From: Escherichia coli
Lineage (GTDB): Bacteria; Pseudomonadota; Gammaproteobacteria; Enterobacterales; Enterobacteriaceae
Reading direction: 5' to 3' (one strand)
DNA: 64,000 bases
Assembly: GCF_002854065.1 (NCBI RefSeq)
Contig: NZ_CP024147.1
Under the pieces are notes generated by a model, which was not told where the DNA came from, did no database searches, and saw nothing but the letters and a program-made list of their open reading frames with translations. Of this stretch, positions 1,608-48,969 are shown piece by piece. Numbering within the stretch: the stretch's first letter is position 1; the number at the start of each line of letters is the position of its first letter. A program made the translations under genes and the position numbers.

Positions 1608-3880
<2,273 letters not shown>

Positions 3881-3930
3881 GAGCTTCTCCTCAATGCCTT
3901 GCGGCCTGCCCTAAGGCAAGCCGCAAGACG

Positions 3931-5472
3931 TTACCAGGATTGGGTTGCTTTGAAGGAATCGAGGATGCCTTTCAGCTTGCCTTCGATTTCGTCGTTGTAG
4001 CCACCGGTCTGGTTGATCTCTTGCATCAACGGAGCGTGATCACGGTCGACGTAAGCCAGCAGAGCGGCTTCGAAGCTGCCGATTTTCGACAGTTCAACAT
4101 CCGCCAGGTAACCACGTTCTGCTGCGAACAGAACCAGAGACTGCTGCGCAACGGACATCGGCGCATACTGTTTCTGTTTCAGCAGTTCGGTCACTTTTTG
4201 ACCGTGGTCAAGCTGCTTACGAGTTGCATCGTCAAGGTCGGATGCAAACTGAGAGAACGCTGCCAGTTCACGATACTGTGCCAGAGCGGTACGGATACCA
4301 CCGGACAGTTTTTTCATGATCTTGGTCTGTGCTGCACCACCAACACGGGATACGGAAATACCCGGGTTAACCGCAGGACGAATACCGGCGTTGAACAGGT
4401 TGGTTTCCAGGAAGATCTGACCATCGGTAATGGAGATTACGTTGGTCGGAACGAACGCAGAAACGTCACCCGCTTGAGTTTCGATAATCGGCAGCGCGGT
4501 CAGTGAACCGGTTTTCCCTTTCACTTCACCTTTGGTGAAAGCTTCAACGTATTCGGCGTTAACACGCGCAGCACGCTCCAGCAGACGAGAGTGGAGGTAG
4601 AATACGTCGCCCGGGAATGCTTCACGTCCTGGCGGACGACGGAGCAGCAGGGAGATCTGACGGTAAGCAACAGCCTGTTTAGACAGGTCATCGTAAATGA
4701 TCAGCGCATCTTCACCGCGGTCACGGAAGTATTCGCCCATTGCGCAACCGGCATACGGTGCCAGGTATTGCAGTGCAGCGGATTCAGACGCGGTTGCTAC
4801 CACAACGATGGTGTTAGCCAGTGCGCCGTGCTCTTCCAGTTTACGTACCACGTTAGAAATGGTGGACGCTTTCTGGCCGATAGCGACATAGATACATTTG
4901 ATACCGGAATCGCGCTGGTTGATGATGGCATCGATAGCCAGTGCGGTTTTACCTGTCTGACGGTCACCGATGATCAATTCACGCTGACCACGACCGATTG
5001 GGATCATGGAGTCAACGGCTTTATAACCGGTCTGTACCGGCTGATCTACGGACTGACGTTCGATAACGCCCGGAGCGATTGCTTCTACAGCAGAGAAGCC
5101 GTCGTGATCCAGCGGACCTTTACCGTCGATTGGTGCACCCAGAGTGTTAACCACACGGCCCAGCAGGCCACGGCCAACCGGAACTTCCAGGATACGGCCA
5201 GTACACTTAACTTTCATGCCTTCGGCAAGGTCAGCGTACGGACCCATAACAACCGCACCTACAGAGTCGCGCTCGAGGTTCAGTGCGATAGCGTAACGGT
5301 TACCCGGCAGGGAGATCATTTCACCCTGCATACAATCGGCCAGGCCGTGAATGCGGATAACACCGTCACTTACAGAAACAATAGTACCTTCGTTGTGAGC
5401 TTCACTCACAACATTGAACTGAGCAATGCGCTGCTTGATCAGTTCGCTGATTTCGGTGGAATTCAGTTGCAT
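3931..5472 (-). CDS. atpA: ATP synthase F1 alpha subunit
   Basis: 513-aa ORF with P-loop GDRQTGKT. Confidence 0.97.
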
Positions 5473-5484
5473 GCTCCAGTCCCC

Positions 5485-6018
5485 TTAAGACTGCAAGACG
5501 TCTGCAAGGCGCTCAAGACGACCGCGTACGCTGCCATCAATGACCATATCACCCGCTCGGATGATAACGCCTGCCATTACAGACTTATCGATTTTGCAAT
5601 TCAGCTTAACTTTGCGTGACAGACGTTTTTCCATCGCAGCAGAAATTTTCGCGAGCTGTTGTTCACTCAGTGCGGCAGCGGAAATGACGTCTACCTCAGC
5701 GGTAGCCTCACTCACGGCACGCAGGTGAATAAACTGCTCCAGAACATCCGGGAGCGCGTTAAGACGACCATTCTCAGCCATAACCCGAATCAGGTTCTGA
5801 CCGTTTTCGTCCAGTTGCTCACCACAAACTGCGATAAACGACTCGGCGAGCGTTTCTGGCGCAAGCGCGCCAGAGAGAAGCTCTGCCATTTGTTCGTTTT
5901 TGGTTACCTCGGCGGCAAACGCCAGCATGTCCTGCCAGCGTTCTACACTTTGGTGTTCGACGGCAAAGTCAAAAGCTGCTTTGGCGTAGGGGCGAGCTAC
6001 CGTAATAAATTCAGACAT
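5485..6018 (-). CDS. atpH: ATP synthase F1 delta subunit
   Basis: 177-aa ORF ([19 protein letters not shown]...). Confidence 0.95.
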
Positions 6019-24844: not shown

Positions 24845-26237
24845 ATTTACGCTGTCTTTTGATCAAATTATTACCATCGGTTGTTTTCAGAAGCATGAAC
24901 ATTGCTGCTGAAGCAACAGTAATAATGCCCATTGTGATAAACGTATAGTGGAATTGTTCGACAGTCGTTGTGCCTTCCATTCCTTCATAAACGCGAAGGA
25001 CGGCCGCACTTACAGCTACGCCTAAACTGATAGACAGTTGCTGCGTGACCGCCAGAACACTGTTACCGCTGCTGGCGTTGTCATCGGTCAGATCGGCAAG
25101 TGTGATGGTATTCATCGCGGTAAACTGCGTCGACATAGCCATCCCTAATATAAACAACGGCAAGATCAGCATCCATATTGCCATTGCCGGTGATTGCAAA
25201 GAGAACTGAGCGATCATTAGCCCAATAATCACCGTGATCCCCACTAATGTATGGCGATAGCCCAGACGACGTAAGACTTGGGTAACCATCGATTTTGCAA
25301 TAATGGAACCTAACGCTGTCGGTGCCATCATACAGCCGGCAATAAACGCCTGATAACCAAATCCTACCTGTAACATCAATGGCATAAGGAACGGTACACA
25401 GCCGGTCCCCAGACGGGTTGCAATATTGCCTACGATACCTATCGAGAAAGTGCGGGTTTTAAATAAATCTAATGAAATTAATGGGTTTGGCGTGCGTCGT
25501 GCATGGAGAATATAGAGAAGCAGTAACCCGATGCTGGTGACAATTACCGTCAAGGCAATCCAGCTGGCGACAATCTTTTCCCCGAATAGCTCTATTCCGC
25601 TTGAGAAGAGAACAAGGCTGAGGCCAAACAGCAAAAAGCCAGTGATATCGAATCTGCGTCGTGCGGTGGTGAAATTGGGCATATGTTTGCGCGCGTAAAG
25701 AAGGCCCGCAATACCTATGGGGATATTGATTAAAAATATCCAGTGCCAGGTTGCCCAGGTGACCAGCACGCCGCCAAGAACGGGGCCTAAAATTGGCCCC
25801 ACCAGACCCGGCATGGCGACAAAATTCAATACTGGAAGAAGTTCATTACGAGGATAAGCGCGCAGTAAGGCCAGCCGAGCAACAGGCATCATCATTGCGC
25901 CGCCTATCCCCTGAATAACCCGGAAGACAACCAGCTGTGGTAGCGAATTAGAAAGTGCGCAGGCCAGAGAACCCAATGTGAACAGACTCACGGCAAGGGT
26001 AAAAATGCGACGCGTACCGAAGCGATCGGCTAGCCATCCGCTTACCGGAATAAGCATCGCCACCGTCAGCGTATAACTGATGATGGCTGATTGCATCGCG
26101 AGAGGAGAACGATTAAGGCTATGAGCGATTGCGGGTAAGGCGGTATTCAGAATAGTGGCATCAAGTGCCTGCATGAAGAAGGCCATCGCCGCGATCCACG
26201 GCAAACCCGCCATACTGCGCTTCTTTTTATCGCTCAT
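24810..26237 (-). CDS. hsrA: MFS-family efflux transporter HsrA (YieO)
   Basis: 475-aa polytopic membrane ORF; 3' end overlaps the rbsR 3' end by 35 bp (convergent). Confidence 0.85.
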
Positions 26238-45416: not shown

Positions 45417-47438
45417 ATGCGTCTAAACCCCGGCCAACAACAAGCTGTCGAATTCGTTACCGGCCCCTGCCTGGTGCTGGCGGGCGCGGGTTCCGGTAAA
45501 ACTCGTGTGATCACCAATAAAATCGCCCATCTGATCCGCGGTTGCGGTTATCAGGCGCGACATATCGCGGCGGTGACCTTTACCAATAAGGCGGCGCGCG
45601 AGATGAAAGAGCGTGTCGGGCAGACGCTGGGTCGCAAAGAGGCGCGCGGGCTGATGATCTCCACTTTTCACACGCTGGGGTTGGATATCATCAAACGCGA
45701 GTATGCGGCGCTTGGGATGAAAGCGAACTTCTCGTTGTTTGACGATACCGATCAGCTTGCTTTGCTTAAAGAGTTGACCGAGGGGCTGATTGAAGATGAC
45801 AAAGTTCTCCTGCAACAACTGATTTCGACCATCTCTAACTGGAAGAATGATCTCAAAACACCGTCCCAGGCGGCAGCAAGTGCGATTGGCGAGCGGGACC
45901 GTATTTTTGCCCATTGTTATGGGCTGTATGATGCACACCTGAAAGCCTGTAACGTTCTCGACTTCGATGATCTGATTTTATTGCCGACGTTGCTGCTGCA
46001 ACGCAATGAAGAAGTCCGCGAGCGCTGGCAGAACAAAATTCGCTATCTGCTGGTGGATGAGTATCAGGACACCAACACCAGCCAGTATGAGCTGGTGAAA
46101 CTGCTGGTGGGCAGCCGCGCGCGCTTTACCGTGGTGGGCGATGACGACCAGTCGATCTACTCCTGGCGCGGCGCACGTCCACAAAACCTGGTGCTGCTGA
46201 GTCAGGATTTTCCGGCGCTGAAGGTGATTAAGCTTGAGCAGAACTACCGCTCTTCCGGACGTATTTTGAAAGCGGCGAACATCCTGATCGCCAATAATCC
46301 GCACGTCTTTGAAAAGCGTCTGTTCTCCGAACTGGGTTACGGCACAGAGCTAAAAGTTTTAAGCGCGAATAACGAGGAACATGAAGCCGAGCGCGTTACT
46401 GGCGAGCTGATCGCCCATCACTTCGTCAATAAAACGCAGTACAAAGATTACGCCATTCTTTATCGCGGTAACCATCAGTCGCGGGTGTTTGAAAAATTCC
46501 TGATGCAAAACCGCATCCCGTACAAAATTTCTGGTGGTACGTCGTTTTTCTCTCGTCCTGAAATCAAGGACTTGCTGGCTTATCTGCGCGTGCTGACTAA
46601 CCCGGACGATGACAGCGCATTTCTGCGTATCGTTAACACGCCGAAGCGAGAGATTGGCCCGGCGACGCTGAAAAAGTTGGGTGAATGGGCGATGACGCGC
46701 AATAAAAGCATGTTTACCGCCAGCTTTGATATGGGCCTGAGTCAGACGCTTAGCGGACGTGGTTATGAAGCATTGACCCGCTTCACTCACTGGTTGGCAG
46801 AAATCCAGCGCCTGGCGGAGCGGGAGCCGATTGCTGCGGTGCGTGATCTGATCCATGGCATGGATTATGAATCCTGGCTGTACGAAACATCGCCCAGCCC
46901 GAAAGCAGCCGAAATGCGCATGAAGAACGTCAACCAACTGTTTAGCTGGATGACGGAGATGCTGGAAGGCAGCGAACTGGATGAGCCGATGACGCTCACC
47001 CAGGTGGTGACGCGCTTTACTTTGCGCGACATGATGGAGCGTGGTGAGAGTGAAGAAGAGCTGGATCAGGTGCAACTGATGACTCTCCACGCGTCGAAAG
47101 GGCTGGAGTTTCCTTATGTCTACATGGTCGGTATGGAAGAAGGGTTTTTGCCGCACCAGAGCAGTATCGATGAAGATAATATCGATGAGGAGCGGCGGCT
47201 GGCCTATGTCGGCATTACCCGCGCCCAGAAGGAATTGACCTTTACGCTGTGTAAAGAACGCCGTCAGTACGGCGAACTGGTGCGCCCGGAGCCGAGCCGC
47301 TTTTTGCTGGAGCTGCCGCAGGATGATCTGATTTGGGAACAGGAGCGCAAAGTGGTCAGCGCCGAAGAACGGATGCAGAAAGGGCAAAGCCATCTGGCGA
47401 ATCTGAAAGCGATGATGGCGGCAAAACGAGGGAAATAA
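45417..47438 (+). CDS. rep: ATP-dependent DNA helicase Rep (SF1 UvrD-like)
   Basis: Walker A GAGSGKT; start placed at [29 protein letters not shown] (673 aa). Confidence 0.95.
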
Positions 47439-47443
47439 TCAAG

Positions 47444-47476
47444 GCCGGAAAAGATGCGTCAGCATCGCATCCGGCA
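47444..47476. repeat. REP-like palindromic element / terminator hairpin between convergent rep and gppA
   Basis: GCCGGAAAAGATGCG-TCAGCAT-CGCATCCGGC; reverse complement begins GCCGGATGCG, resembling the REP consensus. Confidence 0.5.
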
Positions 47477-47484
47477 CTTACTCA

Positions 47485-48969
47485 TTAATGCACTTCCAGC
47501 GGCCAGTGGACATAGCTCTGCCACTGGCTTTCCTGAGCAATAATCTCTTTACCCAGCGGATGTTGGGTTAGCCAACCTTGCGGAAGCGTCAAGGTCAACA
47601 GTTCATGGTTAGCCTGTAATGTCATCTCTGGCACGAGATCGTCACGGCGACGGCTGGCAAAAATGATGGCCAGGCGTAGTAAACGGCAGAGTTGTTCTGC
47701 GACGCGCGGCGGTACGGCATTTTGCTGATGCAGCGATGAGAGATCGACCGGATTAGTCTGGTTGAGCAGTAGCGTCGCCAGCAATTTTTTCTGTGCGGGG
47801 GTAAAACCGGGAAGATCCAGATTACGCACCAGATAAGCAGCGTGTTGCGGCGCTTGTTTGAAGTCAACGCTCAGGCCGATTTCATGAAGCTGACAGGCGC
47901 TGATGAGCAAATCGCGGCTTATTGCTTCAAGATGCCATTCGTTTTCCACCTGTTCGAAGAAGTTAGCTGCAACTTTGGCTACGCGCTGTGCCTGATCAAT
48001 ATCGATCATAAAGCGGCGTTGAATATTACGCAGCGTACGGCTGCGAATATCCTGCTCGACGGCCAGATGCAACATGCCGTAGACCAGGCCTTCACGCAGC
48101 GCACCGCCCGCCAGGGTCATACACTGAATATTCAGTTCGGTAAAAATGGCGATCAGGATCGCCAGACCACTCGGGAACACTAACGCACGTTCCAGCGTCA
48201 GCCCGTCAATCTCCAGTTCCTCCAGCCGACCGCAATGAATGGCTCGCTGTTTCAATTGCTGCAACTTTTCCAGGGTAATGCGTTCATCCATCCCCTGTGC
48301 CATCATGATTTCCTGTAACGCCTGCACGGTGCCGGAAGCACCAACGCACACTTTCCAGCCGTGATACCGTAATTCATCGGCAACCGGACGTAACACTTCG
48401 CGTGCCGCTTTTTCTGCAGCATCAAAATTTTCCTGCCCCAGATTACGATCGGCAAAATAGCGTTCCAGCCAGGTGACGCAGCCCATCGACAGGCTAAACA
48501 ACGAGGTAGTTTGTGCACCCGTGCCGGTTACCAGTTCAGTACTGGCACCGCCGATATCCACTACCAGGCGCTGATCGGCACCGCCAGTGGTGTGAGCAAC
48601 GCCCTGATAAATCAGACGTGCTTCCTCTTCACCGCTGATCACCTGTACCGGACAACCGAGAATTTCCTGCGCTTTGGCAATAAAATCACCCGCATTGACG
48701 GCAAGGCGTAACGTCGCCGTAGCGACAACGCGAATTTGCGAGGGAGGGATATCTTGCAGACGTTCAGCAAACAGGCGCAAACATTGCCAACCGCGCTCCA
48801 TTGCTTCATTGGAGAGGGCATTTTCGCTATTCAGGCCAGCAGCCAGACGCACTTTGCGTTTTATTCGCGTCAGCGTCTGGATGCTTCCAGCCACCTCGCG
48901 CACAACCAGCATATGAAAACTATTCGAACCGAGATCAATGGCTGCATACAGCGACGAGGTGGAACCCAT
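47485..48969 (-). CDS. gppA: Guanosine pentaphosphate phosphohydrolase / exopolyphosphatase
   Basis: Ppx/GppA family; start placed at [23 protein letters not shown] (494 aa). Confidence 0.93.

Follow-up and report, generated by a model that had tools for sequence, protein, structure and literature searches.

The genes rep and gppA (gpp in K-12 naming) converge in Escherichia coli, and the short gap between their stop codons is largely taken up by a palindrome. What is this palindrome, and what becomes of the transcripts that reach it from either side? An initial annotation of the locus had called it REP-like and had proposed that it acts as a bidirectional transcript-stabilising or termination structure. 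We examined it within a 64-kb stretch of E. coli DNA, hereafter the window, to which all positions refer unless MG1655 is named; coordinates in MG1655 (NC_000913.3) equal window coordinates plus 3,915,260. K-12 MG1655, O157:H7 and many other strains match a 501-bp piece surrounding the site with 100% identity. The piece is present in 5,424 of the 5,426 complete E. coli genomes, where annotation places rep on one side of it and gppA on the other, and the names of the flanking genes, rep and gppA/gpp, are those given by annotation in more than 5,400 E. coli genomes.

The gap from stop to stop spans 47439-47484 (46 bp) and reads TCAAG GCCGGA AAA GATGC GTCA GCATC GCA TCCGGC ACTTACTCA. An imperfect palindrome fills most of it, just as the initial annotation had described: its core occupies 47444-47475, with inverted-repeat arms at 47444-47457 and 47462-47475, and together with flanking pairs it accounts for about 40 of the 46 bp. 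Since the element lies wholly inside the gap, it is extragenic. Read from the minus strand it begins with GCCGGATGCG at 47475-47466, also as described, and this is the sole such 10-mer in the window. The end that had been given for the element, 47476, is one base beyond the palindrome; in the REP consensus GGC is followed by a conserved A, which is this base, and the catalogued element also ends here (see below). The features of the gap are as follows.

47436-47438, plus strand: stop codon of rep (TAA), 2 nt ahead of the first extended pair and 5 nt ahead of the REP core.
47487-47485, minus strand: stop codon of gppA (gpp) (TAA), 4 nt ahead of the extended stem and 9 nt ahead of the REP core.
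47440-47443, plus strand: tetranucleotide CAAG in the place of the conserved GTAG, with two of four bases kept (covariance-model alignment).
47444-47475: REP core, 32 nt, GCCGGAAAAGATGCGTCAGCATCGCATCCGGC; the plus strand carries the "REP" orientation, and the gpp mRNA carries the inverse form, which starts GCCGGAUGCG.
47444-47449: 5' arm of the foot stem, GCCGGA, paired with 47470-47475 in a 6-bp foot.
47470-47475: 3' arm of the foot stem, TCCGGC, paired with 47444-47449.
47450-47452 and 47467-47469: internal 3x3 loop, AAA against GCA (fold and covariance-model alignment).
47453-47457 and 47462-47466: upper stem of 5 bp, GATGC/GCATC, closed by the 4-nt loop GTCA at 47458-47461.
47477-47480: flanking bases that pair with 47440/41-47443 and lengthen the stem by 3-4 pairs past the REP core.

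Folding of the RNA predicted a stable hairpin on both strands, at -21.6 kcal/mol on the plus strand (z -6.9) and -21.3 kcal/mol on the minus strand (z -3.9), and none of 200 dinucleotide shuffles equalled either value. With the 3-4 extra flanking pairs, the hairpin covers about 47440-47480. The AA at 47451-52 lies opposite GC at 47467-68, which is the two-base mismatch of a canonical REP. A T>A change at 47450 breaks the seventh pair of the foot, and the 2x2 AA/GC mismatch thereby becomes a 3x3 loop.

The likeness to repetitive extragenic palindromes that had been suggested proved fully justified: the palindrome is a single bona fide REP (palindromic unit), already catalogued as REP286. It is listed as "Convergent", rep/gpp, at 3962701-3962736 of MG1655, corresponding to 47441-47476 of the window (Harris et al., bioRxiv 10.64898/2026.03.23.713779, supplement). 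The K-12 REP at 25710-25741, which lies between lspA and fkpB and reads GCCGGATAAGATGCGTCAGCATCGCATCCGGC after a GTAG, shares 31 of 32 positions with the core of REP286; no background match to the core on either strand of the 64-kb window exceeds 20 of 32. Z1-type copies agree at 26 of 32 positions, and four of the six differences make up two compensating pairs. For a sample of canonical REPs we took the first 212 kb of the K-12 chromosome, which yielded 16 units. From 13 of these independent REPs we built a covariance model, which matched 47440-47477 on the plus strand over its full length (40.4 bits, E 2.8e-11), the next-best score in the 64-kb window being 11 bits. Copies elsewhere in the genome, which the initial annotation had proposed looking for, are plentiful: at a stringent threshold the 46-nt gap query matched 5,425 of 5,426 E. 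coli genomes, with a median of 24 places in each, and literature figures for REP units per E. coli genome range from 584 to 697 (the lower figure from PMC3333891). We classify REP286 as a slightly degenerate hybrid, with a Y-type foot on a 32-nt body of Z1 length.

Regular-expression scans and the covariance model revealed no second REP in the 64-kb window. The element was accordingly rejected as a BIME, being a single unit in the gap with no inverted partner REP in the window. Membership of the Rfam family naRNA4 (RF02564) was likewise rejected: the match scored 26.2 bits (E 0.027), far under the gathering threshold of 59.5, a score that reflects shared REP ancestry only. The NC_000913.3 annotation has no repeat_region features at all, so the absence of a REP from it at this locus is uninformative; it lists no repeat at 5565-5596 in the thrC-yaaA region either, where a REP is plainly present. 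On plasmids, the only kind of match to the gap query was that of pSTEC711_1 (NZ_CP041417.1, 306 kb, E. coli), which carries a chromosomal-type ycfP-ndh segment with a Z-type REP at 401-431 of the retrieved locus (L091).

An E. coli REP is an imperfect palindrome of 30-40 nt whose stem contains a two-base mismatch and whose foot is preceded on the 5' side by a highly conserved GTAG; binding and cleavage by the transposase TnpA-REP need both the GTAG and the mismatch (Ton-Hoang 2012, PMC3333891). Most REPs are paired in BIMEs, solitary units numbering 84 of 584 (PMC3333891). REP286 departs from this pattern in three respects: GTAG has become CAAG, T has become A at 47450, and there is no partner REP. 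GTAG precedes 14 of the 16 sampled K-12 REPs, the remaining two having GAAG and TTAG; with CAAG at 47440-47443, REP286 lacks this hallmark of the family. The loss of GTAG counts against activity as a transposase substrate and does not exclude descent from the REP family. With CAAG where GTAG would be expected and a broken pair in its foot, REP286 is probably no longer a substrate of TnpA-REP, and its sequence suggests an immobile relic that has been retained at this site; the published GTAG mutant that lost binding was ACGA, which differs from the CAAG found here (PMC3333891). Classification as an active TnpA-REP (RAYT) substrate was rejected on the predicted effect of the missing GTAG and the missing BIME partner.

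We then turned to published maps of RNA 3' ends and Rho-dependent termination, in which the locus is represented by the following features.

47438 (MG1655 3962698), minus strand: primary 3' end of gpp, Term-seq, average of 25,474 reads, LB at OD600 0.4 (Adams et al. 2021, eLife, PMC7815308, Supplementary file 1).
47238 (MG1655 3962498), minus strand: region of Rho termination antisense to rep (PMC7815308, Supplementary file 2).
47339-47438, minus strand: candidate rut region of C-rich, G-poor untranslated RNA antisense to the 3' end of rep, with a C/G ratio of 1.79, at the 97th percentile of the window's 100-nt windows.
47452-47557 (MG1655 3962712-3962817), plus strand, rep-sense: P_R10_3328, a peak of Rho binding in vitro (rut) that shares 24 nt with REP286 (Harris et al., bioRxiv 10.64898/2026.03.23.713779, supplementary file 2).

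A 3' end that maps to the hairpin, the observation by which the initial annotation had proposed to check its function, is thus on record for the gpp strand, at 3962698 (minus strand), that is, window position 47438. In the published table this end is classed as "primary" for gpp and as antisense to rep, and the sequence surrounding it is the REP286 hairpin (PMC7815308). The gpp RNA ends ...UCCGGCCUUGAU-3', 2 nt beyond the extended stem and 6 nt after the core stem, within the partly U-rich CUUGAUUAUUU. The end was called in LB at OD 0.4 only, and not in LB at OD 2.0 or in M63 (PMC7815308). Both REP286 and its RNA end were therefore already known, the one from the catalogue and the other from the Term-seq table.

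Transcription itself stops further downstream. Without bicyclomycin (BCM), coverage fell from 202 upstream of the Rho region to 29 downstream; with BCM it was 235 upstream and 369 downstream (Rho score 10.9, p 2.7e-39; PMC7815308). The coordinate of this region is approximate, being the best-scoring position from 800-nt flanking windows, and the downstream signal could be inflated, since antisense transcription too is released by BCM. Since BCM restores read-through, we conclude that transcription on the gpp strand is terminated by Rho, and that this takes place beyond the hairpin and not at it.

For the rep strand the record is sparser. The Term-seq sheet for LB at OD600 0.4 lists no 3' end on either strand between 3962698 and 3965375, and hence none for rep (PMC7815308). 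In vitro Rho binding at P_R10_3328 hints that rep transcription, too, ends Rho-dependently here. The peak extends into sequence antisense to gppA, and it is the sole evidence from the rep strand.

How would a hairpin upstream of the termination region come to mark the end of the mRNA? Rho-dependent transcripts have been found to end just after stable stem-loops that lack U-tracts, to which PNPase and RNase II trim them back; rut sites lie just beyond such hairpins, and annotated REPs are present at 24% of such ends (Dar & Sorek 2018, PMC6061677). Three features of these protective hairpins are seen at REP286, namely a 3' end adjoining a stable stem-loop, BCM-sensitive read-through and an excess of C over G downstream. 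We propose that REP286 acts as a barrier to 3' exonucleases that sets the 3' end of the gpp mRNA after Rho-dependent termination in sequence antisense to rep, and we put the probability of this reading at roughly 75%. RNA polymerase coming from gpp would read through REP286; Rho would load on the untranslated, C-rich RNA just past the hairpin and terminate transcription within a few hundred nucleotides; and 3'-to-5' exonucleases (PNPase, RNase II) would trim the tail until blocked by the hairpin of -21 kcal/mol, leaving a precise and protected 3' end. On the other strand, rep transcripts may end likewise, given the Rho binding seen in vitro. The hairpin may also have a net stabilising effect on the mRNA, with the caution that REP-bearing genes show no general advantage in half-life and that the effects of REPs depend on context (Harris et al., bioRxiv 10.64898/2026.03.23.713779).

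REP286 is fixed in E. coli, with 5,415 records matching at least 80% of the 46-nt query, most of them at 95% identity or more. The variants that we inspected carry 47457 C>T, either alone or together with 47453 G>A. Each change is single-sided and weakens one pair of the upper stem, and the hairpin keeps a stability of -18 to -20 kcal/mol in all variants examined. Neither of these two common variants includes a compensatory change, and covariation among E. coli strains hence lends no support to the structure. Because the upper-stem polymorphisms are non-compensatory, they argue against strong selection on the exact structure of REP286.

To place the element in a wider context, we assembled 80 rep loci from GTDB species representatives, in 69 of which gppA converges on rep. 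With the covariance model trained on E. coli, a REP was found at the junction in 30 of these 69 species, all Enterobacteriaceae, on the rep-sense strand and always in the same orientation. By eye, several more species carry a genus-specific type, GCCCGGTAAG. Twelve of the 69 have a gap of 10 bp or less, or overlapping genes, and no hairpin, and some others have unrelated hairpins at the junction. The copy in E. albertii is recognisably homologous and retains the T that was lost in E. coli.

Several details of these loci are worth recording. Where a REP occupies the junction (about 3400-3500 of each locus), it is of the flavour proper to that species' genus. The GTAG of the REP provides the rep stop codon (G|TAG) in Salmonella enterica subsp. 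diarizonae, Citrobacter werkmanii and one Enterobacteriaceae isolate (L010, L043 and L062; 3403-3406), and in Citrobacter sedlakii and Kluyvera (L007 and L065, 3403-3406) ATAG stands in its place; in loci with GTAG or ATAG at the end of rep the repeat abuts the coding sequence with zero spacer. Two Citrobacter species (L013 and L014, about 3403-4450) have approximately 1 kb of extra DNA between rep and gppA, with an ATG soon after the rep stop codon in L013. A GTDB representative labelled E. coli (L004, 3404-3519) has a 116-bp gap, in which the REP is without the AAAGA segment and so forms a perfect 10-bp stem of GCCGGATGCG, with extra upstream sequence that includes a partial second GCCGGAT motif. 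Upstream of rep, REPs or BIME-like pairs are present in several relatives (L005, 897-981; L004, 950-981; L011, L012 and L062, around 540-620); the relatives with REPs 5' of rep include E. albertii and the variant "E. coli" SCPM-O-B-8794, and the E. coli window has none there.

The position of REP286 relative to the two stop codons invites a different explanation, in which it would lower expression through translation: ribosomes would stall at the hairpin, leading to mRNA cleavage and trans-translation, and hence to less Rep and GppA. This mechanism draws on Liang et al. 2015, to the extent that the work is related in PMC12306157. The hairpin begins less than 16 nt after both stop codons (spacers of 2-5 nt for rep and 4-9 nt for gpp), and the REP supplies the stop codon of rep in Salmonella and Citrobacter. 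However, such closeness may simply reflect the tightness of the 46-bp gap, and 12 of the 69 related species manage with almost no gap and no hairpin. We consider this explanation unlikely as an account of the element, although it may add to a barrier against exonucleases rather than replace it.

The same degree of doubt attaches to REP286 being a neutral relic of a selfish repeat, which would have settled in a permissive gap and whose effect on the RNA 3' end would be an unselected by-product. The degenerate GTAG, the damaged foot and the non-compensatory polymorphisms would all be expected of such a relic, many relatives lack the element or have unrelated hairpins at the junction, and the absence of a genome-wide half-life advantage for REP-bearing genes (Harris et al. 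preprint) points the same way. Set against this are its fixation in essentially all E. coli (the 5,415 records above), the recurrence of a same-orientation REP at the junction in 30 of 69 species of Enterobacteriaceae, and a hairpin stability that is kept throughout the variants. We consider it unlikely that REP286 is no more than such a neutral relic.

A more speculative reading goes to the opposite extreme. Since a REP in the same orientation occupies the junction in at least 30 of 69 species, and in Salmonella and some Citrobacter rep takes its stop codon from the GTAG of the REP, the junction might just conceivably be a "REP slot" maintained by selection and not a site that passively receives REPs. 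The hairpin would then be coupled, in a conserved manner, to the end of Rep translation. Ribosome stalling close to the stop codon could then tune the levels of Rep helicase, of GppA (an enzyme of the ppGpp pathway), or of both, which we regard as a long shot; that the sequence is periodically refreshed by conversion from other REPs strikes us as equally far-fetched.

Returning to the exonuclease barrier that we favour, its most familiar competitor is a bidirectional intrinsic terminator, in which the hairpin itself would release RNA polymerase arriving from rep as well as from gpp. REP286 resembles such a terminator in being a stable, GC-rich hairpin flanked by convergent genes; the gpp 3' end lies only 6 nt past the core stem in the partly U-rich CUUGAUUAUUU, and approximately 40% of REPs between convergent genes fall inside bidirectional terminators defined by sequencing (Harris et al. 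preprint). Moreover, a textbook bidirectional terminator stands at the same junction in Franconibacter. Yet a consensus promoter and terminator scan called no intrinsic terminator in the gap (47439-47484) on either strand, and the plus-strand tail, ACUUACUCAUUAAU, has no U-tract, while that of the minus strand is only partly U-rich. For rep no 3' end is listed, coverage on the gpp strand no longer drops when BCM is present, and a polyU tract is missing from most REPs (Harris et al. preprint). We consider it very unlikely that REP286 terminates transcription in this manner, and rejected its assignment to the class of intrinsic terminators for want of a proper U-tract and of a scan call, together with its BCM sensitivity (Rho score 10.9). 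A weak intrinsic or pause-assisted contribution at the gpp end, within CUUGAUUAUUU, is conceivable. Of the function first proposed, then, transcript stabilisation fits the gpp strand, where a defined 3' end lies at 47438, whereas bidirectional termination is not supported, given the lack of a listed rep 3' end, of a plus-strand U-tract and of a terminator call, and the restoration of gpp-strand read-through by BCM.

The scan found no promoter in the rep-gppA gap, and the TERMITe supplements hold no entry for the locus. Inside rep, in antisense orientation, there is a terminator-like hairpin, CGCCGTACTGACGGCG followed by TTCTTTACAC, at 47259-47274 (minus strand), approximately 20-35 nt upstream of 47238; the number of terminators of this type returned by the scan is at chance level (1 found, 1.1 expected). 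The terminator of Franconibacter helveticus (L030, 3404-3433), AAAAAGCCTCCTGCGGGAGGCTTTT, replaces the REP there and is a functional analogue at the orthologous site.

Finally, a role at the level of DNA, as a site for DNA gyrase, IHF, Pol I or the TnpA-REP transposase, is highly improbable: REPs and BIMEs are reported to bind those proteins (PMC3333891), but the activities are tied to BIMEs, that is, to paired REPs with linkers, and REP286 is solitary in the window and lacks the GTAG that TnpA-REP needs.

Beyond correct annotation, the significance of these findings is small: E. coli has roughly 600-700 REP units, and REP286 is one of them. On the reading that we favour it would be a clean example of a REP hairpin between convergent genes that fixes where an mRNA ends and shields that 3' end once Rho has terminated transcription, without being a true terminator. 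It would also exemplify a degenerate copy that has lost the recognition signal for the transposase and has kept its effect at the level of RNA.

Four known systems bear comparison with REP286. It shares with the E. coli REPs of types Y, Z1 and Z2 a 32-nt extragenic palindrome, the GCCGGA...TCCGGC foot, the AA/GC mismatch and a high copy number, and, like about 60% of REPs, it is found at the 3' ends of convergent genes; it differs from them in its solitary state, its CAAG, its 3x3 loop and its hybrid form with a Y foot and Z1 length. With the stem-loops that protect Rho-terminated transcripts (the Peters 2012 model; Dar & Sorek 2018) it has in common a precise end after a hairpin that is without a proper U-tract, BCM-sensitive read-through and a skew towards C over G downstream, the difference being that its end was called in one growth condition. 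REP325/naRNA4 (RF02564), a dual terminator and stabiliser in the yjdMN operon, belongs to the same repeat family, has the same hairpin architecture and has been given a similar dual role in the 3' UTR; REP325 is an array of 12 hairpins between tandem genes, whereas REP286 is one hairpin between convergent genes. Bidirectional intrinsic terminators of the class described by SEnd-seq also present a single palindromic hairpin common to two converging transcription units. REP286 stands apart from these in having no flanking A- or U-tracts, in its dependence on Rho on the gpp strand and in having no recorded 3' end for rep.
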